The notes: generated by a model from the letters alone, not told the origin. Counted from the stretch's first letter, positions 5,906 through 24,975 are shown. The stretch is 32,000 nucleotides of DNA from Delftia acidovorans NBRC 14950 (GCF_001598795.1 NZ_BCZP01000014.1:1-32000), one strand, 5' to 3'. Numbers and translations: made by a program.

Positions 5906-5919
5906 GTGGCCAAGGCGAG

Positions 5920-5948
5920 CTGATGATGAGAATAGTTCTCGATACAAT
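5920..5948 (+). promoter_or_regulatory. Sigma-70 promoter with overlapping Fur box for the ECF sigma operon
   Basis: GATGATGAGAATAGTTCTC (5922-5940) matches the Fur consensus GATAATGATAATCATTATC at 14 of 19 positions. A -10 TACAAT lies at 5943-5948 and a weak -35 CTGATG at 5920-5925 (17-nt spacer). About 90 nt upstream of the sigma factor ATG. Confidence 0.65.
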
Positions 5949-6029
5949 CGCCGGCTCAGCTGTTTGCACCGTGCTCCAGATTCCGCCCCCATTACCCCGC
6001 CGCCGGACAACTTCCACGTCCGCCGTGCC

Positions 6030-6650
6030 ATGCCTGCCATGAAGCGCGACGACGCCCCGGGAGAGCCCGGTGGCCATTCCCGCAGTCTCTACACCCGCTG
6101 GCGCAAGCCGCTGCAGCGCATGCTGGCGCGGTACTTCAAGAGCCCGGCCGATATCGAGGATGCCTCCCAGGAGGTCTTCGTGCGCATGCTGTCGGCCGAC
6201 AAGTGCCTGCCCGTGGACGAAGAGCGGCCCTATCTGCATCAGGTCGTGCGCAGCGTGGCGGCCTTCGCGCACCGCACGGCGCCGCAGCAGGCCGGTGTGC
6301 GGCTGGTGTCCGTGGAGGATTGCCGCGACGAGGTCGAGTCCCTGCCGGCCCGCGACAGAGCCGATCATGCGCTGGACGATGAGCGCCGCCAGCGCCTGGC
6401 CCGGCTGCGCGATGCCCTGAACGAGCTGCCCGAGCGTCAGCGCCAGGCCTTCGTGCTTCACCGCGTGCAGGAACTGACGCTGGAGCAGACGGCCGAGCGC
6501 ATGGACATCACCGTGCGCATGGTCTCGCGCCACCTGAGCCGGGCACTGTCCTATTGCGAGATCCGCGTACGCTACGCCAGCGCCGAGCAAATGCGTGCCC
6601 TGCTGCGCGCAGACGAGCAGCGGCCGGGCGCCGCAGAGAACACACGATGA
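6030..6650 (+). CDS. ECF (sigma-70 family, FecI-like) RNA polymerase sigma factor
   Basis: Region 2 (DIEDASQEVFVRML) and region 4 HTH (LPERQRQAFVLHRVQELTLEQTAERMDITVRMVSRHLSRAL). Start at ATG 6030, or 6039. The stop TGA overlaps the anti-sigma ATG (ATGA at 6647-6650). Confidence 0.88.
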   Translation: MPAMKRDDAPGEPGGHSRSLYTRWRKPLQRMLARYFKSPADIEDASQEVFVRMLSADKCLPVDEERPYLHQVVRSVAAFAHRTAPQQAGVRLVSVEDCRDEVESLPARDRADHALDDERRQRLARLRDALNELPERQRQAFVLHRVQELTLEQTAERMDITVRMVSRHLSRALSYCEIRVRYASAEQMRALLRADEQRPGAAENTR

Positions 6651-7693: not shown

Positions 7694-7986
7694 ATCGAAG
7701 ATTGAAAAACATTTTGTTTCAAATTGACGACCAACCCCAGGTTCCAGCTTTGCACCCGTCCTGGCTTCTATAGGGCAGGGGCGTGGATTTTCCAGGCCCG
7801 CACGGCTGCCAGCCAAGGACCACCGAGGGCGCTCGTCCCTCACGCCCCAGCCAACGGCCGCAACACCTGACGCGCATGCGCGGGTGGGCTGGCATGGCTT
7901 GTCCGGCGCGGTTCCTGATCGCCCGCGACGGCTGCCTGCAGCCTGCCCGTCGCGTGCCCGTGCAACGGCACAGCAACGGAGTGGCA

Positions 7987-10461
7987 ATGAGAGCGCAAGA
8001 AGCAGCAGGCAGGGAATTCGCAGGCAGGGGCACGCATGCCCGACACAGGAACATAAAGGAGCAGGGCGCCGGCCCGCAGGCCAGGCCGCGCCTGCTGGCG
8101 TGGCTGGTGGCCGGTGCCGTGGCCGGCATGGGGGCCGCGCCGTCCGCCCGTGCGCAACAGCTTCAGCAGCCGGCCGCCTCTTCACCGATGCCGTCATCCG
8201 GACAGCGCCTGGCCTTTGACCAGCCGGCGCAGCCGCTGATCAACGCGCTGCGCGCCTTTGGCCGCCAGACCCAGTTCCAGGTGCTGTACGACGAAGCCGT
8301 GCTGGGCGGCCGCCAGGCGCCGGCCCTCCAAGGCAGCTTCACGCCGCAGGAGGCCATGGACCGGCTGTTGGCTGGCACCGGTGTGACCGCGCACAGCACC
8401 GAGCAGGGCACGTTCACGCTGCGCAAGGCGCCTGCGCCGCAGCCTCAGCCGTCGGCGGGCACCACGCTGTCCACGGTCAACGTGACATCGCAGCGCATGG
8501 CCGCGCCGGGCAGCTACGTGGGCAGCGGCAGGAGCGCCAGCACCAAGCTGGACACGCCGCTGATCGAGACGCCGCGCTCCATCTCCATCGTCACCCAGGA
8601 GCAGCTGCAGAACCAGGCGCCCAAGAGCATCGAGCAGGCCCTGTCGTACACGGCCGGCGTGTCCACCGAAGTCACGGGCGCGGACCTGCGCATGACGGGC
8701 GCCATCATCCGGGGTTTCAGCGATGGCAGCTCCTACTACAAGGACGGCCTGCGGCAGTTTTCGGCCGGCACCTATGGTTCGTGGAACGACGAGATCGACG
8801 AGCTGGACAGCATCGAGGTCATCAAGGGCCCGGCCTCCGTGCTCTTTGGCCAAGGGCGGCCGGGCGGCGTGATCAACGTGGTCTCCAAGAAACCCGAGGC
8901 CGACCATGTGAACAGCGTGGGCCTGTCCTATGGCCGCTACCAGCGCGCCCAGGCCACGGCCGATCTGGGCGGCGCGCTGGATGCTTCGGGCGACTTGCTG
9001 TACCGGCTCAACCTCAAGGCGCGTGACAGCGACGGACGCACCGTGGGCTCGCGCGATGACCGCATCTCCATTGCGCCCTCGCTGCGCTGGAACCTCTCCG
9101 GCCGCACCCACCTGACCGTGCTGGGCAGCTACTCGCGCGAGCGCGGCACGCCCAAGTCCTGGTGGCCCAGCCTGTTCACCTACCCGCAGATCAAGGACCT
9201 GCCCGCGCACCTGACGGCCGGCGACCCGTCCTTCGACCGCTTCGACCGCGACACGCGATCGCTGGGCTACGAGTTCTCGCACCAGACCGACAGCGGCTGG
9301 CAGCTCACGCAGAACCTGCGCTACTCCACCATCGACATCGACTACCGCCACATCTACGCCATGGACGTGCTGGCCGACGGCCGAAGCGTCTCGCGCGCCA
9401 GCCTGGCCCAGCGCACCAAGGGCCGCACGCTGGCGCTGGACACCCGCCTGCAGAAGGACCTGCGCTGGGGCGGGCTGCAGCACCGGATGGCCTTCGGCAT
9501 GGACCATGTGAAGTACAGGGAGCGCGGCGGCCTGGGCTTTGGCTGGGATGTGCCCGACCTGGACATGCTCGACCCCGCCTATGGCCAGTCCATCGCCTAT
9601 CCAGAGCTGGAGGACAGCCGCACGGACCTGCGCCAGACCGGCATCTACACGCTCAACCAGTTCAAGTGGGACCGCTGGGTGGCCAATCTCAGCCTGCGCC
9701 ATGACCAGGCGCGCACCACGCAGAACAGCAGCACCCAGCCGCGCATGAGCGACAGCGCCACCACCGGCAGCGCTGGCCTGCTCTACCTGTTCGACAGCGG
9801 CTGGGCGCCCTATGCGAGCTACGCGACCTCCTTCGATCCGGTCACGGGCCTGCAGTACGACGGCAATCCGTTCGAGCCCCGGCGCGGCAAGCAGTACGAG
9901 GCGGGCGTGAAGTACCAGCCTCCGGGAAGCACCTCGCTGATCACGGCCTCGGTCTTCGACCTGCGCCAGACCAACGTCACCACGCTGGACCCTGACCACC
10001 CGCGCTTCAGCATCCAGACGGGCGAGGTGCGCTCCACGGGGCTGGAGCTGGAAGGCCGCTTCGCGCTCACGCGCGAGCTGAACGCGCTGGCCAGCTACAC
10101 CTACCTGGACCCGCGCACCACGCAGAGCAACCGGCCCGCCGAAATCGGCCGCCAGACCATACAGACCACACGCCACATGGCCAGCCTGTGGCTGGACTAC
10201 CGACCGCGCGCGGTGCCGGGCCTGATGGTGGCCGGCGGCCTGCGCTACAAGGGTCGCTCTCCCTACAACGTGGCAGCGGACGGCACGCTGAACATCAACG
10301 ACTCCGCCACGCTGGCCGACCTGGCGCTGGCCTACGAGACGCCGCAGTACCGCATCGCGCTGAACATCAACAACCTGTTCAACCGCAAGTACTTCGCAGG
10401 CATCTTCCGCGGCGTGGATCGCGAGGCCACGCTGAGCTTCAAGTACTACTGGTCTATGTAG
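7987..10461 (+). CDS. TonB-dependent siderophore receptor/transducer with N-terminal signalling (STN) domain
   Basis: STN domain (LAFDQPAQPLINALRAFGRQTQFQVLYDEAVLGG...TGVTAHSTEQGTFTL), plug (RSISIVTQEQL...IEVIKGPASVLFGQGRPGGVINVVSK) and a 22-strand-type barrel. Start set at ATG 7987 with GGAG 5 nt upstream. This leaves an unusually long n-region before the signal peptide (RPRLLAWLVAGAVAGMGAAPSARA), so the start is uncertain. Confidence 0.88.
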   Translation: MRAQEAAGREFAGRGTHARHRNIKEQGAGPQARPRLLAWLVAGAVAGMGAAPSARAQQLQQPAASSPMPSSGQRLAFDQPAQPLINALRAFGRQTQFQVLYDEAVLGGRQAPALQGSFTPQEAMDRLLAGTGVTAHSTEQGTFTLRKAPAPQPQPSAGTTLSTVNVTSQRMAAPGSYVGSGRSASTKLDTPLIETPRSISIVTQEQLQNQAPKSIEQALSYTAGVSTEVTGADLRMTGAIIRGFSDGSSYYKDGLRQFSAGTYGSWNDEIDELDSIEVIKGPASVLFGQGRPGGVINVVSKKPEADHVNSVGLSYGRYQRAQATADLGGALDASGDLLYRLNLKARDSDGRTVGSRDDRISIAPSLRWNLSGRTHLTVLGSYSRERGTPKSWWPSLFTYPQIKDLPAHLTAGDPSFDRFDRDTRSLGYEFSHQTDSGWQLTQNLRYSTIDIDYRHIYAMDVLADGRSVSRASLAQRTKGRTLALDTRLQKDLRWGGLQHRMAFGMDHVKYRERGGLGFGWDVPDLDMLDPAYGQSIAYPELEDSRTDLRQTGIYTLNQFKWDRWVANLSLRHDQARTTQNSSTQPRMSDSATTGSAGLLYLFDSGWAPYASYATSFDPVTGLQYDGNPFEPRRGKQYEAGVKYQPPGSTSLITASVFDLRQTNVTTLDPDHPRFSIQTGEVRSTGLELEGRFALTRELNALASYTYLDPRTTQSNRPAEIGRQTIQTTRHMASLWLDYRPRAVPGLMVAGGLRYKGRSPYNVAADGTLNINDSATLADLALAYETPQYRIALNINNLFNRKYFAGIFRGVDREATLSFKYYWSM

Positions 10462-12677: not shown

Positions 12678-13694
12678 ATGAAAAACCTGTCCGTGAACCC
12701 CTCCCTGAACACCCGCCGCAAGCTGCTGGGCGCAGGCCTTGGCCTGGCGGGCCTGTCCGCGCTGGCGCCGCTGGCCGCACGCGCCGATGACAAGTACCCC
12801 TCGCGCCCGATCACGCTGGTCGTGCCGTTTCCGCCCGGCGGTTCGGTGGACATCATGGGCCGCCAGTACGCAGAGCCTCTGTCGCGCATCCTGGGCGTGC
12901 CCATCGTGGTGGAGAACCGGCCCGGCGCGGGCGGCTCGGTGGCCACGCAGTACGTGTCGCGCGCCAAGCCGGACGGCTACACCCTGGTCGTGTCCTCGCA
13001 GAGCAGCCACCTGGCCAATCCGCTGACCCAGCCCAAGGTGGGCTACGACCCCATCAAGGACTTCGAGAACATTGCCATCCTGGGCCGCCAGCCCAATGCG
13101 CTGATGGTGCATTCCAGCCTGCCCGTGAAGAACTTCCAGGAGTTCATCGAGTACGTGAAGAAGCGCCCCGGCCAGGTCAACTACGGCAGCGCCGGCATCG
13201 GCAGCATGGGCCAGCTCAATGTGGAAATGCTCAAGGCCGCCACGGGCATCTTTGCCACGCACATCCCCTACCGTGGCGGCTCGCCGCTGGTCACGGCCGC
13301 TATCGGCAACGAGGTGCAGTTCATCCTCGACAACCTGGTCTTCATGCTGCCCCACGTGCAGTCGGGCAAGGTGCGCGCCCTGGTCGTGGCCTCGGAGCAG
13401 CGCCTGCCCATGCTGCCCGACGTGCCCACCATGGCCGAGGTCGGCTATCCCCAGCTCAACATGAGTTCCTGGACCGGCATCGCGGCGCCTGCGGGCACGC
13501 CCGACGCCATCGTCCAGACGCTGTACAAGGCCATCCGCCAGGCGGCCACGGCGCCGGCCATGGTGGCCAGCCTCAAGGAGCGCGGCGTGGTCGCCCCCGA
13601 GGAGATGAGCCCCGCCGCCTTCGAGAAGATGATGGCCGAGCGCCTGAAGCTCTTCGGCGAGGTGGTGCGCAAGGCCCATATCGTGGCCGAGTAA
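12678..13694 (+). CDS. Bug-family (TctC-like) tripartite tricarboxylate transporter substrate-binding protein
   Basis: 338 aa. Tat-like signal TRRKLLGAGLGLAGLSALAPLAARA. Bug signatures YPSRPITLVVPFPPGGSVD, VENRPGAGGS, PDGYTL, DPIKDF, PYRGG, LPDVPT. Confidence 0.92.
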   Translation: MKNLSVNPSLNTRRKLLGAGLGLAGLSALAPLAARADDKYPSRPITLVVPFPPGGSVDIMGRQYAEPLSRILGVPIVVENRPGAGGSVATQYVSRAKPDGYTLVVSSQSSHLANPLTQPKVGYDPIKDFENIAILGRQPNALMVHSSLPVKNFQEFIEYVKKRPGQVNYGSAGIGSMGQLNVEMLKAATGIFATHIPYRGGSPLVTAAIGNEVQFILDNLVFMLPHVQSGKVRALVVASEQRLPMLPDVPTMAEVGYPQLNMSSWTGIAAPAGTPDAIVQTLYKAIRQAATAPAMVASLKERGVVAPEEMSPAAFEKMMAERLKLFGEVVRKAHIVAE

Positions 13695-13770
13695 GCAGGG
13701 CACGCCCAGGGTGCCCCCAGGGCGCCCCGGATGGCCGGGCGCAGCCGACGTATTTCCATAAGGAGGAGAC

Positions 13771-14799
13771 ATGAGCATGACCCCTATCGCCCGCCAGGCT
13801 GCCAGCCACCCTTCCCGCCGCCGCGTGCTCGGCGCGGGGCTGGGCCTGGGTGTGCTGGCGCCGCTTGCGGCGCTGGCCGCCGAAGGCAAGGCCGCCGGCT
13901 ACCCCACGCGCCAGATCAGCTTCATCGTGCCGTTTCCGGCCGGTGGCTCGGTGGACGCCATGGCGCGCCAGTATGCCGAGCCCATGGCGCGCATCCTGGG
14001 CGTGCCCATCGTGGTGGAGAACCGGCCCGGCGCGGGCGGCTCGGTGGCTGCGCTTGCCGTGGCGCGCGCCAGGCCCGATGGCTACACCCTGGTCGTGTCC
14101 TCGCAGAGCAGCCATCTGGCCAATCCGCTGACCCAGCCCAAGGTGGGCTACGACCCCATCAAGGATTTCGAGAACATCGCCATCCTGGGCCGCCTGCCCA
14201 ATGTGCTGGTCGTGCCCGCGAGCCTGCCCATCCGCAGCTTTGCGGAGTTCATCGCCTATGCCAAAAAGCATCCTGGCCAGCTCAACTACGGCAGCGGTGG
14301 CACGGGCAGCATGGGCCAGCTCAACATGGAGATGTTCAAGGCCGATGCGGGCCTGGACATCACCCATGTTCCCTACCGGGGCGGCACGCTGCTGGTCACC
14401 TCGGTGCTGGCGGGCGAGGTGCAGGTGTTCTTCGACAACCTCATCTCCATGCTGCCCCACATCCAGGCAGGCAAGGTGCGCGCCCTGGCCGTGGCCTCCG
14501 AGCAGCGCGTGGCACAAATTCCCGATGTGCCCACGCTGGCCGAGGTCGGCTACCCGCAGCTGAACATGAGCTCCTGGACCGGCCTGGCCGCGCCGGCCGG
14601 CACGCCCGCGCCCGTGGTGCAGGCCCTCTTCAAGGCCGTGCGCCAGGCCGCCACGGCGCCGGCCATGGTGGCCAGCCTGCAGGACCGTGGCGTGACGCCG
14701 CCCGAGGAAATGAGCCCTGCCGCCTTCGAGGCCATGATGTCCGAGCGCCTGAAGCGCTTTGGCGAGGTGGTGCGCAGGACGGGCATCGTGGCCGAGTGA
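13771..14799 (+). CDS. Bug-family (TctC-like) substrate-binding protein, tandem paralogue of the preceding gene
   Basis: 342 aa. Tat-like signal SRRRVLGAGLGLGVLAPLAALAA. AGGAGGAG RBS at 13761-13768. By eye about 70% amino-acid identity to 12678..13694, with near-identical nucleotide tracts. Confidence 0.92.
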   Translation: MSMTPIARQAASHPSRRRVLGAGLGLGVLAPLAALAAEGKAAGYPTRQISFIVPFPAGGSVDAMARQYAEPMARILGVPIVVENRPGAGGSVAALAVARARPDGYTLVVSSQSSHLANPLTQPKVGYDPIKDFENIAILGRLPNVLVVPASLPIRSFAEFIAYAKKHPGQLNYGSGGTGSMGQLNMEMFKADAGLDITHVPYRGGTLLVTSVLAGEVQVFFDNLISMLPHIQAGKVRALAVASEQRVAQIPDVPTLAEVGYPQLNMSSWTGLAAPAGTPAPVVQALFKAVRQAATAPAMVASLQDRGVTPPEEMSPAAFEAMMSERLKRFGEVVRRTGIVAE

Positions 14800-14823
14800 G
14801 CCTGGCCCGCCAAGGGCCTGCCC

Positions 14824-15813
14824 TCAGTCCAGCTGCACGCCCACCTCGCGCACCAGCCGCCCCCAGTCCGCCAGGTCCTGGCGCAGCGTGTCGGCGAATT
14901 GCGCGGGCGTGGTCCGGGGCAGATCGGTCAGGTTGAGCTCGCCCAGCTTTTTGGCCGTGGCCGGGTCCTGCAGCAACTGATTGATGGCGGCGTTGAGCTT
15001 GTCCACGATGGGCTGCGGCGTCCTGGCCGGCGCGAAGACGCCGTACCAGGAATAGTTGTGGAACGGGTAGCCCGCCTCGGTCAGGCTGGGCAGGTCCGGC
15101 TGGCTGGGAATGCGCTTGTCACCGCTGTGGGCGATGGCGCGCACGCGGCCCGCACGCACCAGCTCCACCGTTGACGAGGTGTCTGCAAACGCCGCCTGCA
15201 CCTGCCCGCCCAGCAGGCCCTGCACGCAGGGGCTGCTGCCCTTGTAGGGCACATGCTGCATCTGCAGGCCGGCCTGCTTGAGCAGGAATTCCATGGTCAG
15301 GTGCCCGCCCGAGCCCTGGCCCCAGGAGCAGTAGCTGAGCTGGCCTGGCCGTGCGCTTGCATAGGCCACGAACTCCTTGAGCGTGTGCACGGGCAGATCG
15401 CGCGAGACCAGCAGCAGATTGCCGGCGCGCCCTATCTGCGCAATGGGCGTGAAGTCCTTCACCGGGTCATAGGGCACCTTGCGGTAGAGGCTGGGGTTCA
15501 CGGCCATGGACGCCGTGTAGGTGAACAGCAGCCGGTAGCCGTCCGGCGCACTGCGCGCGGCCTGCTCCACGCCGACCAGGCCGTTGGCGCCGGGCCGGTT
15601 GTCCACCACGAAGGGTTGCTTGAGCAGCCGGGTCAGGCCTTCGGCAAACACCCGCGCGATGGTGTCCGTGCCGCCGGCGGCGGCCGTGGGCACGATCAGC
15701 GTGACGGGGCGGGCGGGGTAGTTGCCGGCATCCTGTGCCGGCTGGGCGTGGCCTGTGCAGGCCATGGCCAGCAGCAGTGCCAGGGCCATGCCGTGCTTCT
15801 TCATCGTCTTCAT
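14824..15813 (-). CDS. Bug-family (TctC-like) substrate-binding protein; last gene of the minus-strand operon
   Basis: 329 aa. Sec signal MKTMKKHGMALALLLAMACTGHA. Bug signatures YPARPVTLIVPTAAAGGTD, VDNRPGANG, PDGYRL, DPVKDF, PYKGS, QPDLPS. AAGGAG RBS. Confidence 0.92.
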   Translation of the reverse strand: MKTMKKHGMALALLLAMACTGHAQPAQDAGNYPARPVTLIVPTAAAGGTDTIARVFAEGLTRLLKQPFVVDNRPGANGLVGVEQAARSAPDGYRLLFTYTASMAVNPSLYRKVPYDPVKDFTPIAQIGRAGNLLLVSRDLPVHTLKEFVAYASARPGQLSYCSWGQGSGGHLTMEFLLKQAGLQMQHVPYKGSSPCVQGLLGGQVQAAFADTSSTVELVRAGRVRAIAHSGDKRIPSQPDLPSLTEAGYPFHNYSWYGVFAPARTPQPIVDKLNAAINQLLQDPATAKKLGELNLTDLPRTTPAQFADTLRQDLADWGRLVREVGVQLD

Positions 15814-15819
15814 GCACTT

Positions 15820-15849
15820 GTCTCCTTGTGTCGCCTTGAGTCGCCTTGC
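15820..15849 (-). repeat. Three tandem 10-mers upstream of the Bug gene, the proximal copy forming its RBS
   Basis: Plus strand reads GTCTCCTTGT GTCGCCTTGA GTCGCCTTGC. On the coding strand this is GCAAGGCGAC TCAAGGCGAC ACAAGGAGAC, followed by AAGTGC-ATG. Confidence 0.6.
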
Positions 15850-15864
15850 CTGTGCGCGGCCCCG

Positions 15865-17118
15865 TCAGCGCAGCCCCAGGCGCGCCTGCGTGCCTTGCTC
15901 GATCATGTCGGCCCCCACCCGGTAGAGGTTGCGCGAGACATAGCTGTCCACCTCGCGCGCACGCTCGCGCAGCCAGGCGGCCTTCAGGCTGCGGGCCTGG
16001 CCGATCTCGGGCGCGTCTCCGGTCGCCGTGGCCAGCACGTCGATCACATGCAGGGCCAGCTGCCACTGGCCCGCGTCGGCCAGCGCCTGGGCGCTGGCCA
16101 CCAAGCCGGGCTTGTCGGTGATGGCATCGGCAATGGCGGCGCCTGCGGCCTCGGGCGGGGCCGGGTGCAGCGTGGTCGGGTTGCGGTCCCACCAGCCGTT
16201 TTCCGAACGGTAGATGTCGCGCACGATGTAGCTGGGGTCGCCATAGGTGGGCTTCATCCACTCCACGCCGAACAGCTCCTGCGGATAGTCCATGGCCGCG
16301 AGCACCTGCTGCTCGTTCAGGCCCTCGTTCATCAGGTGCACGACTTCGGCGCGCAGCCAGCGCAGCGCCTGTGCGGTGTGCAGCAGCACCTGCTGCACGG
16401 CCTGCTCGCCCTCGATCACGGGACCGAACTCGCGCACGGCCTTGAGCGGGCGCAGCGCGGCCATGGCCTGCAGCGTGTCGGCCCAGCGCACGGTGTCGCG
16501 CAGCGTGCGAAACGGCGTGCCGATGTTGGGGATGGAGTCCAGCAGCGCCGCGCCGCCGTACAGCACGCGCTGGCCGGGGCTCCACAGCGCGATGGCGTCG
16601 TCGGTCTCGGACGGCGCCCAGAACAGCTCGATGCGGCTGTCCCCGCTGCCTATCTCCAGCCGCGTGTCGAAGGTTTCGGTGGGCTCGTGCATGTCCAGCC
16701 GGTGCTCGAAAAAGCCCGCGCTGCGGTTGAACTGGATCTCGGCCATGCGGTGCTGCAGCGCCCGGGTCTCGCGGTAGCGTGCCTGGCGGCGCGGCAGGTT
16801 GCGGTGCGCGATCAGGCGCGGCACAGGTTCTCCGCGCGCGGCCGCATGCTCCAGCCAGGCGGGCACGCCCGCGTTGTAGCCGATGTGGCCGTGGCTGTAG
16901 CACAGCGCATGCACGGGCGCGTCGCTGAGCTGGCGCAGGCTGGCGATCATGTCCTGGCTGACCTTGCCGCCGGGGCCGGCGTCGATCACCACCAGGCCCG
17001 CGTCGGTCTCGGCCACAAAGGACTGGCCCTGGCCGCGCAATATGTGCAGGCCCGGCGCCACGGTTTCGCTGCCGGTGCCAACCAGCAAAAAGGGCTTGTC
17101 GTCGTCTCTGGCGTTCAT
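15865..17118 (-). CDS. Metallo-beta-lactamase-fold protein related to type III alkyl/aryl-sulfatases; MBL and dimerisation domains present, no SCP2 domain
   Basis: Start at the internal ATG 17118 (MNARDDDKPF...), in an ATGA overlap with the upstream stop and with a GGAGAC RBS. MBL core ...GLVVIDAGPGG...VHALCYSHGHIGYNAG. The C-terminal helical part (GQWQLALHVIDVLATATGDAPEIGQARSLKAAWLRERAREVDSYVSRNLYRVGADMIE) resembles the alkylsulfatase dimerisation domain. No signal peptide. Confidence 0.75.
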   Translation of the reverse strand: MNARDDDKPFLLVGTGSETVAPGLHILRGQGQSFVAETDAGLVVIDAGPGGKVSQDMIASLRQLSDAPVHALCYSHGHIGYNAGVPAWLEHAAARGEPVPRLIAHRNLPRRQARYRETRALQHRMAEIQFNRSAGFFEHRLDMHEPTETFDTRLEIGSGDSRIELFWAPSETDDAIALWSPGQRVLYGGAALLDSIPNIGTPFRTLRDTVRWADTLQAMAALRPLKAVREFGPVIEGEQAVQQVLLHTAQALRWLRAEVVHLMNEGLNEQQVLAAMDYPQELFGVEWMKPTYGDPSYIVRDIYRSENGWWDRNPTTLHPAPPEAAGAAIADAITDKPGLVASAQALADAGQWQLALHVIDVLATATGDAPEIGQARSLKAAWLRERAREVDSYVSRNLYRVGADMIEQGTQARLGLR

Positions 17119-18458
17119 GGGGTCTCCGGGTCTGGTTCGATGGGGGGCAGGGCGTAGCGGCCGTCCAGCAGTTCGGGCCGTGGCATGTAGGCGCGCAGGC
17201 ACAGGTAAAAGCCTTCGCGCGGCGCGGGCAGCCAGTTGGCGCGGTGGTCTTCGCTGGCCGGCGGCGCATGGCTGATGTGGATAGTCAACCCGCCATCGCC
17301 ATCGCCATCAGCGTCGGGGCGCAGGCCCGGCGTGCGGTCGCCGATGGCATAGCGGTCGATGGGGTTGTCCACCAGCATGCAGTCGTGGGCGCCGTAGAGG
17401 GTCAGGGACCAGAAGGCCTGCACGGGCGGCAGCGCGCCTGGGGCAAAGCGCAGCCGGTAGCGGCGGCTGCCATGCAGGGGCCGGCCCTGGGCGTCATGCC
17501 AGGCCAGCGGGTAGATGGCCTCGCGGCTTTCCAGCATGCCGATGTACTTGAGCGCAATTTCGGCGCGGGCCTGGAAGTCGTCGCCAAAACTGCCTTCGAC
17601 CAGGGCGGGGAGTTCCCAGCCCGAGTCCAGGCGCCGGCCCGTGCTGGCCGCGCGCAGCCGGGGCAGCACGCTGTCCAGGGCGCGCTGCAGTGCGGCTTGC
17701 TGTTGCGCATCGGGTGCGCCCAGCCCGGCGCCCAGGCCGACGGCAGCAAAGCGCGCGACCCGTGCGGCATGCCCTGCCGGCGGCGGGTTGTCGCGCAAGG
17801 CGGCATTCACCTGGGCTGCATAGTGCTCGGCATTTGGCGGGGCCTGGGGATCGCAGTCCGGGTCGAAGGCGCGGGCCTGCGAGGGCGTGCCCGCCTGCCA
17901 GTCGGCCAGCGGGCGCACCGCAAAGCCGTCCTGCAGCGCGTGCACGGCGGGCAGGTCATGCTCGCCATCGACCAGGATGCGGCCTATCACCCACAGCCAG
18001 GGCGTGGGCGCGGCAATGTGTGCGCCGGGCGCATCGAACGGTGGCGGCAGCGCCCCCTGCCAGCCGGGCGGCGTGACAAGGAAGGAGCGCGCAGCCGTGC
18101 CCGTCAGGCGCTGGCCCAGGTGGGCGAAGGGGTTGGTGAAGAAGTCCAGCAGGCCCAGGACGTAGTAGCGGCCCGCCGTGTCGGGCACGTCGATCACCAG
18201 CGGCCCGGCGCCCAGGTCCAGCCAGGCGTTGGTGTAGAGCGTGTCGTTGTTGGGCGTGACCACGCGGCTGGTGCCGGCGCGCAGCAGCTGGCGTGCATGC
18301 ACGAACTGGTTGCACCAGCGCAGCGGTGCGGGCGCGGCCTCGCCCGCCGCATTGCGCCGGGGCGAGGTGGCCGCGCGCATGCGGCGCATCTCGTACAGCG
18401 GGCAGGTGTGGATGACGGCCTCCTCGGCCAGGGTGCTCAGGTCCATGGCGTGTCTCAT
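17115..18458 (-). CDS. DUF1254 + DUF1214 domain protein of unknown function (paralogue B)
   Basis: DUF1254-type block VVTPNNDTLYTNAWLDLGAGPLVIDVPDTAGRYYVLGLLDFFTNPF. DUF1214-type block EAIYPLAWHD..PL.GSRRYRLRF..PPVQAFWSLTLY...NWLPAPREGFYLCLRAYMP. Start placed at ATG 18458 (ATGA overlap with the upstream stop at 18455-18457); alternatives are 18446 and 18491. No signal peptide. Confidence 0.8.
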   Translation of the reverse strand: MRHAMDLSTLAEEAVIHTCPLYEMRRMRAATSPRRNAAGEAAPAPLRWCNQFVHARQLLRAGTSRVVTPNNDTLYTNAWLDLGAGPLVIDVPDTAGRYYVLGLLDFFTNPFAHLGQRLTGTAARSFLVTPPGWQGALPPPFDAPGAHIAAPTPWLWVIGRILVDGEHDLPAVHALQDGFAVRPLADWQAGTPSQARAFDPDCDPQAPPNAEHYAAQVNAALRDNPPPAGHAARVARFAAVGLGAGLGAPDAQQQAALQRALDSVLPRLRAASTGRRLDSGWELPALVEGSFGDDFQARAEIALKYIGMLESREAIYPLAWHDAQGRPLHGSRRYRLRFAPGALPPVQAFWSLTLYGAHDCMLVDNPIDRYAIGDRTPGLRPDADGDGDGGLTIHISHAPPASEDHRANWLPAPREGFYLCLRAYMPRPELLDGRYALPPIEPDPETP

Positions 18459-19840
18459 GCGGCCACGGGCTGCAGGGGCGGAACAGGCCATTGGTGCGCG
18501 TCTGCCTGCGGGTGGTACATGCGCAGGATGAGGTAGAAGCGCCCGTGCGGCGTGGGCAGCCAGTTGGCGGCGCCCTGTGCCGGCCGGGCATGGCCCAGGT
18601 CGATCTGCAGGCTGCCGTCGGCCTCGCGCAGCAATCCCGGCGTGCGGTCCCCTATGGAGTGGCGGCCGATCTCGTTGCCGTAGAGAAAGCGGTCGGCGTC
18701 ATACAGGGTGACCGACCAGAAGGCGTCGGCCGGCGGCATGTCGGCGGCATTGAAGCGCAGCACATAGCGCTGGCTGCCGTCCAGCGGCTGCAGGCCTGCG
18801 TCGTGGTGGGCGGCGGCGTAGATGGCCTCGCTGGTGGCCAGCGCGCCCAGGCCCAGGTAGGCGGTGCGTGCGCGGCCCAGGTACTCGCTGCCGTAGCGGC
18901 CGGTGGACGGCGTCATGGTCCAGGGCCGGGGACGGCGGTTGCGCCCCATGGCGGCCACGGTGCGCACGCCGTCGGCAAAGCCCTCGGTCAGGCCTTCGCG
19001 CACGGGCTCCTCCAGCTGCTCCCACGCCATGTGGGCGCTGGCCACCAGGCCGGCCTGGCCGAACCAGGCCAGCAGCCCCTGGTCCTCCTTGCGGCCAGGC
19101 GCCTCGGCCAGCGCATGGCAGAGGTTGGCAAAAAATCGCGGCGCAACCTCGGCCGCAGGCTCCTGGTTCTCGAAGGCGGCCGCCATGGCGTCCACGGGCG
19201 GGCCGACCCAGTTCGTGACGGCGGCCGGGCGGCCTCCTTTCGGCGTGCCTGGCGCGGGCTCCAGCCGGATGTCGGCCTGCAGTGCGCGGGCTGCAGGCCA
19301 GTCGGGCGCATCGCCCACCACGGTGCGGCCGATCAGCCAGACCAGGTTGCTGGGGCAGTGCACCAGGCGGTGGCCGGCCAGGTGTTCCGGCACCTGGCCG
19401 CCCGGCCCGACCAGGACCACGGTCTCGCCTTCGGGCGCGCAGTTGCGCGGTCCCAGGTTCTCGAAATTCTCGGTATAGGCGTCGTACAGGGCCAGCACGA
19501 AGTAGCGGCCCGGATGCGCGGCGCTGGAGGGCACGGTCAGCAGGCGCGGGCCGTCGGCCAGGTGGATCCAGGCCAGCGAGTACAGCAGGTCGTTGGCGGG
19601 CGTGACCACGTCGCGGTCCTCATGGGTGGAGGGGCGCTGGCTGTGGTGCAGCGTGTCGAAGTCGCCGCGCATGTCCAGGCCCAGGCCGGTGGCGCGCGCG
19701 GCGCCGGCATCGGTCTGCAGGCGGCAGGTGCGGTAGGTCTCTATCAGCGGATAGCCGTAGACAAAGGCGGCCAGGCCGATGGAGCGCGCCAGGGCGCGGC
19801 GGACTTCGGGCAGGGAGGGAGGGGTCGGGTTCATGTCCAT
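18455..19840 (-). CDS. DUF1254 + DUF1214 domain protein of unknown function (paralogue A)
   Basis: 461 aa. VVTPANDLLYSLAWIHLADGPRLLTVPSSAAHPGRYFVLALYDAYTENF (DUF1254) and EAIYAAAHHDAGLQPLDGSQRYVLRF...PPADAFWSVTLYD...NWLPTPHGRFYLILRMYHP (DUF1214). No signal peptide. Confidence 0.85.
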   Translation of the reverse strand: MDMNPTPPSLPEVRRALARSIGLAAFVYGYPLIETYRTCRLQTDAGAARATGLGLDMRGDFDTLHHSQRPSTHEDRDVVTPANDLLYSLAWIHLADGPRLLTVPSSAAHPGRYFVLALYDAYTENFENLGPRNCAPEGETVVLVGPGGQVPEHLAGHRLVHCPSNLVWLIGRTVVGDAPDWPAARALQADIRLEPAPGTPKGGRPAAVTNWVGPPVDAMAAAFENQEPAAEVAPRFFANLCHALAEAPGRKEDQGLLAWFGQAGLVASAHMAWEQLEEPVREGLTEGFADGVRTVAAMGRNRRPRPWTMTPSTGRYGSEYLGRARTAYLGLGALATSEAIYAAAHHDAGLQPLDGSQRYVLRFNAADMPPADAFWSVTLYDADRFLYGNEIGRHSIGDRTPGLLREADGSLQIDLGHARPAQGAANWLPTPHGRFYLILRMYHPQADAHQWPVPPLQPVAA

Positions 19841-19864: not shown

Positions 19865-20845
19865 TCAGTCGAGGGTCACGCCCGTGGAGCGCGCCAGGTC
19901 CAGCGCCACGGGCAAAAAGGCGGCGTAGGCGGCGCTGGCCTCGGCCGGGCTGTTGCCCTGGGCCTCCAGGCCCAGCGCCTCGACACGCTGGCGCACCTGG
20001 GGCTCGCGCATCACCGCGGCGACCTCGCGGCCCAGGCGTTCGACGATGGCGTCGGGCGTGCGCACGGGCGCCATCAGCGAGATCGATCCCGTGATGGCAT
20101 ACACGGGCTCGCGGTAGCCCTGCTCGGCAAAGGTGGGCACATCGGGCAGGGCCTTGCTGCGGCGCGGTCCGGCCACGGCCAGGGCGCGCAGCTTGCCGGC
20201 GTCGATGAAGGGCTTGAGCGTGGCGGCCGAGCCCAGCGTCATCTGGATCACGCCGCTGATCAGGTCGATGGACATGGGCCCCTCGCCCTTGTAGGCCACG
20301 TGCAGCGACTGCAGGCCGTAGGCCTTGTCCATGAAGACCTGGACCTGGTGCGGCTGCGTGCCCGCGCCCCAGGAACCCATGGCGTACTTGCCCGGCGACT
20401 GGCGCACGGCCTCGACCAGTCCCTTGAAGTCCTTGGCCGGCACGGCCGGGTTGACCGCCATCACCATGGAGGGCGAGACCACGTCCGAGACCATGCGCAG
20501 CTCGGTGCGCGGGTCGTAGGGCAGCTTCTTGTAGAGCACCAGGTTGGCCGTGATGGGCCCGGGCACGGTCAGCAGCAGGGTGTGGCCGTCGGGCGCGCTC
20601 TTGGCCACATGCTCGGTGCCGATGATGCCGCCCGCGCCGCTGCGGTTGTCCACCACCACGGGCTGGCCCAGGCGCTTGGCCAGGCCCTCGGCCAGGATGC
20701 GCGCCACGGTGTCGGTGGAGCCGCCTGCCTGGTATTGCACGACGATGCGCACGGGCCGGGCGGGATAGCCGTCCTGGGCCAGCGCGGCGCTGCAGGCCAG
20801 GGCAAGGCAGGTCAGTGCGGCGGTGCGCAGCAGGGGTGTGTTCAT
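19865..20845 (-). CDS. Bug-family (TctC-like) substrate-binding protein
   Basis: Start at ATG 20845 (MNTPLLRTAALTCLALACSAALA signal) with GGAGG 6 nt upstream. Alternative ATG 20887 forms an ATGA overlap with the upstream stop. Bug signatures YPARPVRIVVQYQAGGSTD, VDNRSGAGG, PDGHTL, YKGEGP, LPDVPT. The longer track ORF (to 21241) overlaps the acyl-CoA synthetase gene. Confidence 0.9.
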   Translation of the reverse strand: MNTPLLRTAALTCLALACSAALAQDGYPARPVRIVVQYQAGGSTDTVARILAEGLAKRLGQPVVVDNRSGAGGIIGTEHVAKSAPDGHTLLLTVPGPITANLVLYKKLPYDPRTELRMVSDVVSPSMVMAVNPAVPAKDFKGLVEAVRQSPGKYAMGSWGAGTQPHQVQVFMDKAYGLQSLHVAYKGEGPMSIDLISGVIQMTLGSAATLKPFIDAGKLRALAVAGPRRSKALPDVPTFAEQGYREPVYAITGSISLMAPVRTPDAIVERLGREVAAVMREPQVRQRVEALGLEAQGNSPAEASAAYAAFLPVALDLARSTGVTLD

Positions 20846-20883: not shown

Positions 20884-23010
20884 TCATGCAGCCTCCCTGC
20901 CGATGACCAGCGCATCGACGGCCACGCAGCCGCCGTCCTCGCGCGGGCGGGCGATCAGGGGGTTGATCTCGGCGCTTTCCAGCGTGGCGCCTGCGCGCTG
21001 CGCAAAGCCGGCCAGGGCGCACAGCGTGTCGGCAATGCTGTCCAGATCCACGCGGGGGCGGCCGCGCGCGCCGTCCAGCACGGCAAAGGCCCGCAGCTCG
21101 CGCACCATGGCCAGCGCGTCGTCGCGCGTGATGGGCAGCAGGCGCAGCGAGACATCGCGCAGGATCTCGGCATGGATGCCGCCCAGCCCGAACATCAGCA
21201 CCGGGCCGAACACCGGGTCGCGGTGCACGCCGGCGATGCACTCCACGCCGCCCTGCACCATGGGGGCGGCCAGCGCGCCGTCGATGTGCGCATCGGGCCG
21301 GGCCTGGCGCGCATTGGCCAGGATGCGGTCGAAGGCGGCCTGGGCGCCGGCCGCATCCGCCAGGTTCAGTGCCACGCCGCCCACGTCGGACTTGTGGGCG
21401 ATGGCATCGCTGCAGACCTTGAGGGCAATACGTCCGCCCATCTCCTGCGCTGCCTGCACGGCTTGCGCTGCCTCGGCCGCCGTGCGCACCAGCCGGTGCG
21501 GCACCACGGGCACGCCGGCCTCGGCCAGCAGGGTCATGCTGCGCTGCTCCGACAGCGTGCCCGCCGGCAGGTGCAGCGCGCTGCCTGCATCGGCCATCGC
21601 GGGCAAAGCCTGCGGTGTTTCATGCAGGCGGGCCAGCGCGCCAATGCAGCGTATGGCCGCGCCCGGGTCGGCAAACACCAGGCAGCCCAGCGCCTCCAGC
21701 GCATCGCGGCGCTCGGGCGGGCACAGCGTGCTGACGGCCAGCAGGATGTCGGGATTGTGGGTGCGCAGCGTCTGCACCAGGCTTTGCAGCACGGGCCAGA
21801 AGGCGTCGGACAGGCCGCCTGCCGCGAAGAAGCCCAGCCAGCTGTCGAACTGCCGGTCGGCCAGCATCAGGCGGGCGCTGCGCTCCAGCAGCGTCATGTC
21901 GTTGGTGACCTGGCCCGTGATGTCCACGGGGTTGCGCGGCGCGGCAAACGGCACCCATTCGCGCAGCTGGCGCTGGGCCGCATCGGACAGCGGTGCCACA
22001 TCCAGGCCGGCTGCGCTGGCATCGTCGGCCATCATGGCGCCCACGCCGCCCGAGACCGTGAACAGTCCGATGGACCGCCCCTTGGGGGCCCGCGCGATGG
22101 AGGCACTGGCCGCCAGCGCGAAGAAGTCGGTGATGGAATGCGCGCGCAGCACGCCGTAGCGGCGGAACACCGCGTCATAGACGGCATCGTTGCCCGCCAG
22201 CGAGGCCGTGTGCGATGCGGCAGCGGCCGCGCCCAGGGCGCTGGTGCCCACCTTGCACATGACCACGGGCTTGCCGCGCTCCTGCGCCAGGGCCAGGGCC
22301 GCGCGCAGCCGGGGGCCGTCGCGGCAGCCTTCCATGTAGGCCATGATCACGTCGGTCTCGGGGTCCTGGGCCAGCCAGGCCAGGCCATCGGCCAGCTGCA
22401 CATCGGCCTCGTTGCCCGTGGTGGCCCACAGCGACAGGCCCAGCCCACGCTCGCGCGCCAGGCTGTAGGCATAGGCACCGAAGGCGCCCGACTGGCTGAC
22501 CATGCCGATGCGCCCGGGCCGCACCAGCCCGCCGCCCGGCGCGGGCGAGAACGTGGCGTAGACCTGGTGGCCGGGGCGCATGAAGCCCAGGCAGTTCGGG
22601 CCGATGAGGCGTATGCCCGCCTCCTGCGCGCGCCGCGCCAGCGCCTGCTGGGCGGCCGTGCCGTCGGAGCCGGTCTCGGCATAGCCCGAGGAAAACAGCA
22701 CCATGGACTGCACGCGCGCGGCGGCCGCATCCTCCAGCACGCCGGCCACCTGCGACTGCGGCACGGCGACGATGGCCAGGTCCACCGGCGCGCCGATGGC
22801 GGCCAGCCGCTCGTGCGCGGGCAGGCCCTGCACGCGGCTGGCGCGCGGGTTCACCGCATACAGCGCGCCGCCGTAGCCGAAGCGCAGCAGGTAGTCCAGC
22901 GGAATGCCGCCGATCTTGCTGGCCTGGTCCGAGGCGCCGACCACGGCGATGGAGCGCGGCGCAAACAGCGCGTCGAGCCGGGAAGTGTCGAAGCAATGGC
23001 TGTCGGTCAT
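20884..23010 (-). CDS. Acetate--CoA ligase family protein (NDP-forming acyl-CoA synthetase, fused alpha/beta, ACD type)
   Basis: 708 aa. CoA-binding N-terminus (PRSIAVVGASDQASKIGG), CoA-ligase domain (GIRLIGPNCLGF), phosphohistidine loop SHTASLAGNDAVYDAVFRRYGV, and a C-terminal ATP-grasp (GGRIALKVCSDAIAHKSDVGGVALNL). No GNAT domain, so it is not a Pat-type acetyltransferase. Confidence 0.88.
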   Translation of the reverse strand: MTDSHCFDTSRLDALFAPRSIAVVGASDQASKIGGIPLDYLLRFGYGGALYAVNPRASRVQGLPAHERLAAIGAPVDLAIVAVPQSQVAGVLEDAAAARVQSMVLFSSGYAETGSDGTAAQQALARRAQEAGIRLIGPNCLGFMRPGHQVYATFSPAPGGGLVRPGRIGMVSQSGAFGAYAYSLARERGLGLSLWATTGNEADVQLADGLAWLAQDPETDVIMAYMEGCRDGPRLRAALALAQERGKPVVMCKVGTSALGAAAAASHTASLAGNDAVYDAVFRRYGVLRAHSITDFFALAASASIARAPKGRSIGLFTVSGGVGAMMADDASAAGLDVAPLSDAAQRQLREWVPFAAPRNPVDITGQVTNDMTLLERSARLMLADRQFDSWLGFFAAGGLSDAFWPVLQSLVQTLRTHNPDILLAVSTLCPPERRDALEALGCLVFADPGAAIRCIGALARLHETPQALPAMADAGSALHLPAGTLSEQRSMTLLAEAGVPVVPHRLVRTAAEAAQAVQAAQEMGGRIALKVCSDAIAHKSDVGGVALNLADAAGAQAAFDRILANARQARPDAHIDGALAAPMVQGGVECIAGVHRDPVFGPVLMFGLGGIHAEILRDVSLRLLPITRDDALAMVRELRAFAVLDGARGRPRVDLDSIADTLCALAGFAQRAGATLESAEINPLIARPREDGGCVAVDALVIGREAA

Positions 23011-23019: not shown

Positions 23020-24084
23020 TCAGAAGTTGTGGCGCACACCCAGCGCCAGGGACCGCACGCCGTCGCCGCTGTTGGCGGCCACCGGCACGTTGGCAATGGC
23101 GGCCGAGGCATTGGCCGCGTTGCCCAGCTGCAGCCAGCGCGCGTAGAGCACGGTGCGCTTGCTCAGCGCGTAGTCGTAGCCCAGCGTCCAGGTGTTCTGG
23201 GCGCGGTCCGTACCGCCCACCTCGCGCCGCGCCACCGAGACCAGCAGCTTGGAGCGCGCATCCAAGCTCCAATCGGCGCCCAGCTGGGCCAGCTTCGCCT
23301 TGGGTGTGCCGGCACGGTCCACGCGGTTGATGACGTAGTTGCCCGTCAGGCGCAGGCCGTCCAGGGCTTCCCAGCTGGCCGACAACGCCTGGTAGTGGCT
23401 GGTGGCGGGTGCGGCCACAGGTGCGGCGGCGCTGCCTTCCACGGACTTCTGGAAGCTGTAGGCCAGGAACCAGGGCTTCTGGTTCCAGCCCAGCGTGGCG
23501 CCGTAGAGGCGGCCGTTGTTGCTGTTCGGCGAAGCCACTTCGCCGAAGGAATAGGCCAGGTCCGCCAGCCAGGGCTGGCCTGCCGGCGTGCGGTAGCGCA
23601 CCAGGTTGTTGGCCCGCGCCGCAAACGGCCGCAGGCTGGCCTGGGCATCGGTGGCCGACACCAGGTTCAGCGAGGAAAACAGCGCGTTCATGCCCAGCGG
23701 ATCGGCGCGGAACAGCGCGCCGAACATGGGCGTATACATGCGGCCCATCTCCACGGCGCCCCAGCCGCTGTTCAGTCCTACCCAGGCCTGCCGCGTGAAG
23801 GCCAGGCCCGGGCCGGGAATGGTGCCCAGGCCCGTGTCCGGCGCCACGCCGGCCTCCAGCATGAACTGGGCGCGCAGGCCGCCGCCCAGGTCCTCGCTGC
23901 CGCGAAAGCCGATGCGCGATGCCGCGCTGCCCCCGTCCTCCAGCCGGCTCAGGCGCGTGGCGCCCGACCTTGCGCTGTTGATGTGGACGTCGACGATGCC
24001 GAACATCTCCACGCTGCCCTGCGCCCACGCGGACGTGCCCAGGGCCGCCATGCCGCCGGCGGCCAGCCAATGCTTGTGCTTCAC
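23020..24084 (-). CDS. Outer-membrane porin (Gram-negative general porin, Omp32/OmpC-like); first gene of the operon
   Basis: 354 aa. GTG start at 24084 with AAGGAG 8 nt upstream. Signal peptide ...AAGGMAALGTSAWA. GSVEMFGIVDVHIN first strand, alternating beta-strand pattern, and the C-terminal LALGVRHNF motif with terminal Phe. Confidence 0.9.
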   Translation of the reverse strand: MKHKHWLAAGGMAALGTSAWAQGSVEMFGIVDVHINSARSGATRLSRLEDGGSAASRIGFRGSEDLGGGLRAQFMLEAGVAPDTGLGTIPGPGLAFTRQAWVGLNSGWGAVEMGRMYTPMFGALFRADPLGMNALFSSLNLVSATDAQASLRPFAARANNLVRYRTPAGQPWLADLAYSFGEVASPNSNNGRLYGATLGWNQKPWFLAYSFQKSVEGSAAAPVAAPATSHYQALSASWEALDGLRLTGNYVINRVDRAGTPKAKLAQLGADWSLDARSKLLVSVARREVGGTDRAQNTWTLGYDYALSKRTVLYARWLQLGNAANASAAIANVPVAANSGDGVRSLALGVRHNF

Positions 24085-24237: not shown

Positions 24238-24975
24238 ATGCGCTCCAAGCCTGCTCCCGTGGCCGACCCTTCGGCGCTGATCCGCCGCGCCCTGGGCCTG
24301 TGCCGCATGCTGCGCAACTGGCCGCCCGAGGTGCTGGATGAGCTGACGGCGCTGTCCCGCCTGGGCCGCTACGAGCGCCACCAGCAGGTGCGCGCCGCCG
24401 ACCCCAAGCGGCGCGAGGTGCTGGTGGTGGCTTCGGGCTGCGTGGAAGTGGGCGGCGTGGACGCCACGGGCTCGCGCTTCGTGCTGTCCATGCACAGCGC
24501 GGGCGACATCGTCGGCCTGGCGCGGCTGCTGGAGCACACGCAATTCGTCTACGACTACCACGCGCACCAGCCCACGGTGCTGGTGGAGATTCCCGGCGAG
24601 TCCTTCCTGGCCCTGCTCGATGCCCATCCGCCGCTGTGGAAGGACATCTGCCTGCTGGTGCTGGCACGCATGCACGAGCTGATCGTCGTCCAGCAGCGCC
24701 ACGCCTTCAGCAACATCGACAACCGCGTGGCCGAACTGCTGGCGCGGCTGGCCCCCACGCATGGCCAGCCCGCGCCCGACGGGCAGGGCGTGGTGCTGCG
24801 CATCTCGCAGAGCGACCTGGCCGCCATGCTGTCGGTCTCGCGCCAGACCATCAACAAGGAGCTGCGCCTGCTGGAGCAGCGGGGCCTGCTGCAGGCCGCC
24901 TATGGCCGGCTGACCATCGTCGACCTGGCGGGCCTGCTGCGCCTGTCCGATGCGGGCGCGCGGCCGGGGCCCTAG
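24238..24975 (+). CDS. Crp/Fnr-family transcriptional regulator
   Basis: This is the last 245 codons of the 1386-aa track ORF; only this part looks like real protein. It has a beta-roll effector domain (VLVVASGCVEVGG..GSRFVLSMHSAGDIVGL) and a C-terminal HTH (ISQSDLAAMLSVSRQTINKELRLLEQRGLL). No FNR Cys cluster and no obvious cAMP phosphate-binding R-[ST]-A. Alternative start at 24193. Confidence 0.85.
   Translation: MRSKPAPVADPSALIRRALGLCRMLRNWPPEVLDELTALSRLGRYERHQQVRAADPKRREVLVVASGCVEVGGVDATGSRFVLSMHSAGDIVGLARLLEHTQFVYDYHAHQPTVLVEIPGESFLALLDAHPPLWKDICLLVLARMHELIVVQQRHAFSNIDNRVAELLARLAPTHGQPAPDGQGVVLRISQSDLAAMLSVSRQTINKELRLLEQRGLLQAAYGRLTIVDLAGLLRLSDAGARPGP

Follow-up and report, generated by a model that had tools for sequence, protein, structure and literature searches.

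Two anciently duplicated cytoplasmic DUF1254/DUF1214 proteins in a conserved gene cluster of Delftia acidovorans with an acyl-CoA synthetase and an atypical alkylsulfatase-like protein

We analysed a stretch of 32,000 nucleotides from Delftia acidovorans NBRC 14950 (GCF_001598795.1 NZ_BCZP01000014.1:1-32000), hereafter the window, and in it two adjacent genes, A and B, that each encode a protein of the DUF1254/DUF1214 family. The interval 17115-19840 is filled exactly by these two open reading frames (ORFs), both on the minus strand. They sit inside a tightly packed minus-strand cluster that reads porin, acyl-CoA synthetase (ACS), Bug, A, B, metallo-beta-lactamase-fold (MBL) protein and second Bug (Table 1). 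We propose that A and B descend from an ancient duplication within their family, are located in the cytoplasm and work in one conserved catabolic module, and we infer that they most likely touch each other in a hetero-oligomer. We hold this reading as a whole with about even confidence.

Both domains are present in each protein over the full length of the Pfam models. PF06863 matches A with E=1e-37 (129.7 bits) and B with E=4e-48 (163.3 bits), for a cut-off of 22.2 bits. The corresponding values for PF06742 are E=1e-34 (119.8 bits) and E=4e-34 (118.1 bits), for a cut-off of 25 bits. No NCBIfam model matches A or B. Aligned by BLASTP, the two proteins share 35% identity over 397 columns (E=7e-48), which is far beyond chance. 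The GC content at third codon positions (GC3), 0.89 in A and 0.81 in B, fits real genes in a 70% GC genome, and gene A is 99% identical to its counterpart in Delftia tsuruhatensis (locus L001). The possibility that A and B result from chance or from an annotation artefact was considered and is ruled out by the E-values, the GC3 values and the conservation of the genes. The stop codon of A overlaps the start codon of B in an ATGA at 18458-18455 (...GCC GCA TGA, with the ATG at 18458-18456). The length of B is counted from this ATG; an alternative ATG is found 12 nt downstream. B is joined to the MBL gene in the same manner, by an ATGA at 17118-17115 (...CCC CAT GAA, with the ATG at 17118-17116). 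The original prediction had described two adjacent genes, each with the complete DUF1254 + DUF1214 architecture, and ATGA overlaps at both junctions; the Pfam matches and the nucleotide sequence bear this out. It had also put the identity of A and B at 35-45%, of which the BLASTP value is the low end, and the two shared blocks that it had pointed out, VVTP.ND.LY..AW... and FWS.TLY...NWLP.P.G.FYL.LR.Y.P, both fall within the BLASTP alignment.

One genome per GTDB species was searched with an alignment of A orthologues; from the 170 relatives recovered, the 80 best loci were retained. B was located by tblastn, and adjacency was scored wherever the sequence continues for 1.5 kb or more beyond A, which is the case in 76 of the 80 loci. 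In 65 of these 76, B is the next gene after A. The loci belong to the Comamonadaceae (Delftia, Comamonas, Variovorax, Xenophilus, Pseudorhodoferax, Acidovorax, Ramlibacter, Pseudacidovorax, Rhodoferax and Hydrogenophaga) and, outside these genera, to Rubrivivax-like metagenome-assembled genomes (MAGs) and to Cupriavidus. Most A-B pairs are separated by -4 to +30 nt, the widest gap being 194 nt. At a threshold of at least 45% identity, the ACS is found in 61 of the 80 loci and the MBL gene in 50. The survey of coupled pairs and flanking enzymes in other genomes that accompanied the original prediction has thus turned out in its favour. In a neighbour-joining tree of 61 A-B pairs and 73 other family members, all 61 A sequences form one monophyletic clade and all 61 B sequences form another. 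Mean identity is 0.61 within each of the two clades and 0.36 between them. These separate clades and the two levels of identity point to an old duplication that predates the split of the families sampled; as judged from the tree, it is older than the divergence of Comamonadaceae and Cupriavidus.

A and B are both under purifying selection. Between close species, the median pairwise ratio of nonsynonymous to synonymous substitution rates (dN/dS) is 0.14 for A and 0.18 for B, next to 0.15 for the MBL gene and 0.115 for the ACS gene. It could be proposed that B is a redundant duplicate in the course of being lost, and that the pair has no joint function. B is indeed absent from 10 loci and its dN/dS is slightly above that of A. 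Moreover, in a Comamonas MAG (locus L004, 11391-11884) only residues 274-443 of B are left between A and the MBL gene, owing either to natural truncation or to an error of assembly. We nevertheless find such a decay very hard to believe. The duplication is older than the Comamonadaceae/Cupriavidus split and B has been kept in 65 of 76 loci, a dN/dS of 0.18 denotes clear purifying selection, and B is both the copy nearest to the family consensus and the one found fused to the MBL protein and to the ACS, as described below. As regards the original prediction, it had counted two outcomes against itself. The first, a pair unique to this genome, is contradicted by its retention in 65 of the 76 loci. 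The second, a copy decaying in relatives, is partly seen in the 11 loci where B is absent or truncated, and the purifying selection acting on both copies speaks against it.

Natural fusions connect the parts of the cluster. B and the MBL protein form a single ORF of 850 aa in the Comamonadaceae strains 2FH and 2FC (L034, 2502-5054, and L161, 2503-5055; three NCBI contigs). This ORF is called as one gene and contains PF06863, PF06742, PF00753 and PF14863. A single B-MBL ORF of 878 aa with a different linker is present in a MAG (L032, 2518-5154) whose lineage is related to that of these strains. RefSeq lists a separate 415-aa MBL protein for strain 2FC; the assemblies of L032, L034 and L161 are free of stop codons from B into the MBL part. 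A second type of fusion joins a complete ACS to a DUF1254/DUF1214 module in a protein of 1118 aa. Its 7 members, WP_414182725.1 among them, come from Alcaligenaceae such as Allopusillimonas ginsengisoli. The protein shares 46% identity with the window ACS in its ACS part and 43% with B in its B-like module. In A. ginsengisoli, the neighbours of the fusion gene (L162, 8001-11357) are a Bug gene, a LysR regulator and a short-chain dehydrogenase/reductase (SDR). A third type consists of tandem proteins of 891-962 aa with two full DUF1254-DUF1214 modules, distributed over several lineages. One is encoded by Methanospirillum stamsii (WP_181391485.1) and another by a Planctomycetota MAG, and one cluster of them has several members of 948 aa. 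These proteins support the principle only. They show that a two-module unit has arisen repeatedly in the family. Further fusions join a module to a choloylglycine-hydrolase-family (CBAH) Ntn amide hydrolase (P0503, 808 aa, on one 3-kb metagenome contig) and to a Stf0 sulfotransferase (PF09037; L163, 350-2581, on one metagenome contig). Fusions are classic evidence for close cooperation of their parts, and a physical association of the parts is likely here. Evolutionary distances were also compared. When the ACS is controlled for, their partial correlations are 0.66 for A-B, 0.69 for A-MBL and 0.83 for B-MBL, the last being the highest of the pairs tested; pairwise distances are not independent, so that these correlations are weak evidence.

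Judged from conservation and fusions together, A, B, the MBL protein and, above all, the ACS constitute one conserved functional module. The ACS, which was absent from the original prediction, is the strongest partner of the pair. It is located upstream of A wherever it is seen. It has the full domain set of the ADP-forming acetyl-CoA synthetase (ACD) family, with a SHTASLAG loop at residues 266-273 that we take to be the phosphohistidine loop. Its NCBIfam scores are all far below the equivalog cut-offs. The second Bug gene is kept downstream of the MBL gene in most loci, and most Comamonadaceae loci have the Crp/Fnr-family regulator at the corresponding place. Promoters and terminators were looked for in the cluster by a simple scan, which gave no signal above background.

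Table 1 Genes of the A-B cluster and its divergent regulator, with positions in the window
Feature	Coordinates	Strand	Remarks
Gene A	18455..19840	-	DUF1254+DUF1214 protein, 461 aa, without signal peptide; more diverged paralogue
Gene B	17115..18458	-	DUF1254+DUF1214 protein, 447 aa, without signal peptide; family-typical paralogue
MBL-fold protein with alkyl-sulfatase dimerisation domain	15865..17118	-	417 aa; directly after B
ADP-forming (NDP-forming) acyl-CoA synthetase (ACS)	20884..23010	-	708 aa; CoA_binding_2, Succ_CoA_lig, ATP-grasp_5
Bug/TctC-family periplasmic carboxylate-binding protein	19865..20845	-	Signal peptide MNTPLLRTAALTCLALACSAALA
Second Bug/TctC-family periplasmic binding protein	14824..15813	-	Last gene of the cluster
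Porin (Porin_4), outer membrane	23020..24084	-	First gene of the cluster; match of at least 45% identity in 32/80 loci
Crp/Fnr-family regulator	24238..24975	+	Divergent; likely regulator of the cluster

The MBL protein consists of PF00753 (E=3.4e-12) followed by the alkyl-sulfatase dimerisation domain PF14863 (E=1.5e-34). In its metal motif, SHGHIGYN (HxHxGY) replaces HxHxDH. The altered motif, SHGH[IVL]GYN, is invariant in 164 MBL orthologues, and the protein is 77-85% identical across genera, hence more conserved than A or B. The MBL protein is clearly functional. From its motif, it is probably not a binuclear-zinc alkylsulfatase, and it may represent a distinct, non-binuclear branch of the alkylsulfatase-like MBL proteins.

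The DUF1254/DUF1214 family is large, a library clustered at 50% identity containing 9196 of its representatives at E<=1e-3. Its members are found in bacteria, archaea and fungi. The AlphaFold2 model of A has a predicted local distance difference test score (pLDDT) of 94.3 and a predicted template-modelling score (pTM) of 0.92. Search for structural similarities using Foldseek retrieved 3U07 (E=2.6e-27) and 2P3Y (E=5.5e-25), and also 3VB9 and 6ANS, with E-values ranging to 5.6e-12 and a template-modelling score of about 0.67 against 3U07 and 2P3Y. Beyond 3U07, 2P3Y/3VB9 and 6ANS, this search gave no further match of meaningful probability. Sequence searches of the PDB return only VPA0106 (3U07) and VPA0735 (2P3Y, 3VB9). 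The fold is a pair of beta-sandwich/jelly-roll domains whose weak structural neighbours in Foldseek are binding modules and lectin-like domains.

The residues of the A and B clades were compared with those of the 73 other family members, a set seeded on B motifs and thereby biased towards B. About 40 residues are invariant, including clustered Arg, Tyr and Asp, and the core is rich in Arg, Tyr, Trp, Asp and Asn. The core kept in both clades comprises, in A numbering, D84, R112, D120, R132, R172, D180, Q188, W307, R323, Y341, FWS374-376, Y380, N389, R393, D408, NWLP426-429, R440 and Y442. In this comparison, none of the residues conserved family-wide is a His, Cys, Lys or Glu. B retains nearly all of the family-conserved positions. 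A has changed at many secondary positions of the DUF1254 half, where TPNNDTLY has become TPANDLLY (N82A, T85L) and W133 (B numbering) has become Gly. B thus appears as the copy nearest to the family consensus and A as the derived one. For a metal site, the residue profile of the family would be a poorer fit than for a site that binds anions or sugars, or for an enzyme without cofactor. Because the invariant core is identical in A and B and no His or Cys is conserved, each paralogue may have a working anion-binding site, free of metal.

Another explanation of these features is that the DUF1254-DUF1214 modules are non-catalytic, serving as ligand-binding or scaffolding subunits that confer substrate specificity on the true enzymes (the ACS, the MBL protein or a sulfatase) or assemble them, the duplication having widened or tuned binding. 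The jelly-roll fold and its binding-type neighbours, the lack of family-wide conserved His, Cys, Lys or Glu and the fusions to unrelated catalytic domains (ACS, MBL, CBAH and Stf0) all agree with such a role. Still, dN/dS values of 0.14-0.18 and some 40 invariant residues also fit a cofactor-free lyase or hydrolase, and many members of the family are stand-alone, exported proteins without an obvious enzymatic partner. We therefore regard purely non-catalytic modules as unlikely.

Signal peptides were assessed with a crude but uniform test, a 10-residue window of mean Kyte-Doolittle hydropathy >=2.2 upstream of the domain. Such a hydrophobic N-terminal stretch is present in 47 of 72 proteins of the wider family and in none of the 61 A and 61 B orthologues. 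The lack of an N-terminal signal sequence, as originally predicted for the two proteins of the window, therefore extends to their orthologues. In the wider family, many of the upstream segments have AxA-type ends, and several contain a Cys that possibly marks a lipoprotein. By this test, the A/B subfamily is set apart from most of its relatives by lacking signal peptides.

Several weak clues point to a sulfated or otherwise anionic carboxylate as the substrate. The two Bug proteins that flank the module are one clue to a carboxylate, since their closest solved homologues (BugE, BugD and the terephthalate- and adipate-binding proteins) bind carboxylates. The 32 kb of the window contain five Bug/TctC genes (12678-13694, 13771-14799, 14824-15813, 19865-20845 and 27804-28787), and no TctA/TctB membrane components were found beside them within it. 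CoA chemistry is hinted at by the ACS, found in 61 of the 80 loci, and by other genes: acyl-CoA dehydrogenases precede A-B in two loci (L041 and L071), and a family III CoA-transferase is close to the pair of another (L076). Clues to sulfate esters are the alkylsulfatase-like nature of the MBL partner, the Stf0 fusion and the following neighbours. In about 10 Rhodoferax-type loci, a cytoplasmic type-I sulfatase (PF00884) of about 754 aa, devoid of a signal peptide, is encoded directly upstream of ACS-A-B. It is found at 5497-7761 in L055 and at the same position in L047, L050, L051, L053, L056, L059 and L070. In loci of the L055 type, the sulfatase stop codon overlaps the ACS start and a TetR regulator replaces the Crp-type one. 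A separate Stf0-like gene (L164, 13160-13879) is located about 4 kb from a double-module gene. Sulfatase-family genes adjoin 3 of 78 unrelated single-module members and lie within 2-4 kb of 2 more. This enrichment is suggestive only. In two loci, L062 and L063 (~12820-16260), the genes after A-B encode an SDR, a RuBisCO-like protein and a four-carbon acid-sugar kinase (SBD_N/NBD_C), a gene set that recalls acid-sugar (tetronate or apionate) pathways; no ACS is present within 10 kb in these loci.

A number of observations weigh against a joint A-B unit, or against the chemistry that the cluster suggests. A is retained while B is absent (10 loci) or truncated (one locus) in 11 of the 76 loci. 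Examples of A without B are L023, L026, L042-45 and L080, besides others, and the A-to-MBL junction is clean in Comamonas composti (L023), in Ottowia (L026) and in L042/43/45. Conversely, a B-like gene follows Bug-ACS in a metagenome contig that has no A (L081), and the ACS fusion of L162 carries a single B-like module, with no second module and no MBL gene nearby. Each paralogue can therefore function without the other, and an A-B heteromer, if it exists, is not obligatory, B having been lost in about one locus in seven. ATGA-type overlaps are seen in only about 16 of the 65 A-B pairs, and a TGATG/TAATG junction in about 4 more. Both halves of most double-module proteins are closer to B than to A, which makes these proteins products of independent duplications rather than orthologues of A plus B; the model of one of them (P0366), obtained from a shallow alignment of 15 sequences, reaches a pLDDT of 76 and a pTM of 0.64, its two modules being neither clearly packed together nor clearly apart. 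The CBAH and Stf0 fusions are each known from a single contig. The immediate neighbours of unrelated members of the family, 100 of which were surveyed by Pfam, are heterogeneous and include no dominant partner. Most members of the family appear to be exported, where CoA and ATP are not usable, so that an activity common to the family must be cofactor-independent. Finally, the MBL protein has Ala and Pro at the positions aligned to E299 of SdsA1 and H317 of Pisa1, two type III alkylsulfatases. As these residues and the second-site Asp-His are missing, the MBL protein may not be a sulfatase.

Part of this evidence could be explained if A and B were separate enzymes or binding proteins of one pathway, acting at successive steps or on different substrates and forming no stable complex. 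Adjacency and start-stop overlap would then reflect ordinary operon organisation in a GC-rich genome. The A-only and B-only loci, the presence of an ATGA overlap in only about a quarter of the pairs and the divergence of A at many family-conserved positions, which would fit a new specificity, are in line with this explanation. On the other hand, the independent module-module, B-MBL and ACS-module fusions are a classic signature of physical cooperation, A, B and the MBL protein co-vary beyond the ACS-controlled phylogeny, and the two paralogues have the same invariant core rather than different sites. Separate proteins are thus, in our view, a possible but rather unlikely alternative. ATGA-type overlaps are generally common in GC-rich operons. 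The ATGA coupling, from which, together with the duplication, a complex had been predicted, is real in the window, but with some 16-20 of 65 pairs showing an overlap or junction it is weak evidence when taken alone. The predicted heteromeric cytoplasmic complex, possibly including the MBL protein, is partly supported: the cytoplasmic location stands, and the B-MBL fusions and the B-MBL correlation lend real support to a part for the MBL protein.

We return to the preferred reading, an A-B hetero-oligomer within the ACS-MBL module. Such a heteromer is plausible because two-module units recur in the family and because paralogues derived from self-associating proteins often still interact. From what is known of the protein families, an anionic organic acid would enter through the porin, be bound in the periplasm by the two Bug proteins and be activated in the cytoplasm by the ADP-forming ACS. 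A and B, closely associated with the ACS and the atypical MBL protein, would hold that same substrate or act on it, a linkage to which conservation and fusions testify. The two proteins would form a hetero-oligomer whose ancestor was a unit naturally employing two modules, and B would dock to the MBL protein. As to chemistry, we speculate that a carboxylate carrying a sulfate or similar ester group serves as the substrate, a guess preferred because sulfatase-type partners recur near the modules or fused to them, and that the modules bind it or catalyse a cofactor-independent step. A more daring version, which is speculative and which we consider improbable, takes the DUF1254-DUF1214 module for an enzyme or receptor for sulfate esters that needs no cofactor and has so far gone unrecognised. 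Here the A-B pair, with help from the degenerate MBL protein, would remove sulfate by beta-elimination from the CoA thioester of a sulfated hydroxy-acid, activated beforehand by the ACS. If true, this CoA-dependent route of desulfation would differ from every known class of sulfatase, and a function would also be assigned to a family with thousands of members.

Structures of the family have been solved since 2007, yet no experimental function was found in the literature searched. Full-text searches by family, structure and locus names retrieved no functional study of DUF1254/DUF1214, and the matched PDB entries are uncharacterised, so that the family is still, as originally stated, one with structural-genomics models and no established function. 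A Pseudomonas plecoglossicida 'duf1214' paper deals with LexA regulation only. The paired cytoplasmic subfamily is an unpublished, well-defined variant of this known uncharacterised family. Its context is unusually informative: it has a fixed ACS partner, an atypical sulfatase-like MBL protein and fusions that name the proteins that belong together. A large uncharacterised family thereby gains its first testable context. The pair is carried by tractable hosts such as Delftia, Comamonas testosteroni, Variovorax and Cupriavidus. It also offers a case for the evolution of duplicated modules, with a family-typical B, a diverged A and natural controls in the lineages that have no B.

The rest of the window contains other systems. 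Region 2001-6000 has a GC content of 0.61-0.63, against about 0.70 elsewhere, and encodes an ABC transporter composed of an SBP_bac_3 binding protein, two permeases and an ATPase. This low-GC block may have been acquired horizontally. Region 5904-10461 encodes a FecI-like extracytoplasmic function (ECF) sigma factor, a FecR-like anti-sigma factor (6554-7693) and a TonB-dependent receptor (7783-10461) with an N-terminal STN signalling domain, which together look like a cell-surface signalling unit. At 31139-31999, a protein with an NYN ribonuclease and an OST-HTH/LOTUS domain extends past the end of the window.

Several known systems resemble parts of the cluster. The window ACS has the domain set and the SHTASLAG loop in common with the ACD family. 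The Allopusillimonas ACS with its C-terminal DUF1254/DUF1214 module resembles the Pat/PatZ acetyltransferases, which likewise combine an ACD-like domain with another functional domain. The Pat acetyltransferase carries a GNAT domain on its ACD-like part; unlike this second domain, the DUF1254/DUF1214 partner is without known activity.

The MBL protein shares its MBL and dimerisation domains with the type III alkylsulfatases SdsA1 (2CFU) and Pisa1 (2YHE). Its YSHGHIGY aligns to YSHSHIDH in Pisa1 and YSHAHADH in SdsA1. SdsA1 and Pisa1 are proteins of 633-668 aa, whereas the window protein ends after the dimerisation domain, without the SCP2-like domain. Its N-terminus, MNARDDDKPF..., is no signal peptide.

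A Malassezia PF06742 protein has been proposed to be a jelly-roll glycosyl hydrolase, on an untested structural analogy (Wu et al. 2015, PMC4634964). This fungal protein shares the Pfam family with A and B, and the glycosidase guess relies on the jelly-roll plus Ig-like fold that they have in common. In contrast, the context of A and B, with a CoA ligase, carboxylate-binding proteins, sulfatase-like partners and a cytoplasmic location, does not suggest polysaccharide hydrolysis. VPA0106 (3U07) and VPA0735 (2P3Y, 3VB9) from Vibrio parahaemolyticus and 6ANS from Burkholderia cenocepacia have the same two-domain architecture and fold as A. They are uncharacterised single proteins from structural genomics, at 13-21% identity only, and provide no functional information. 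A and B differ from the wider family, of which 47 of the 72 sampled members seem to be exported, by being cytoplasmic, paired and encoded within an ACS-MBL operon.

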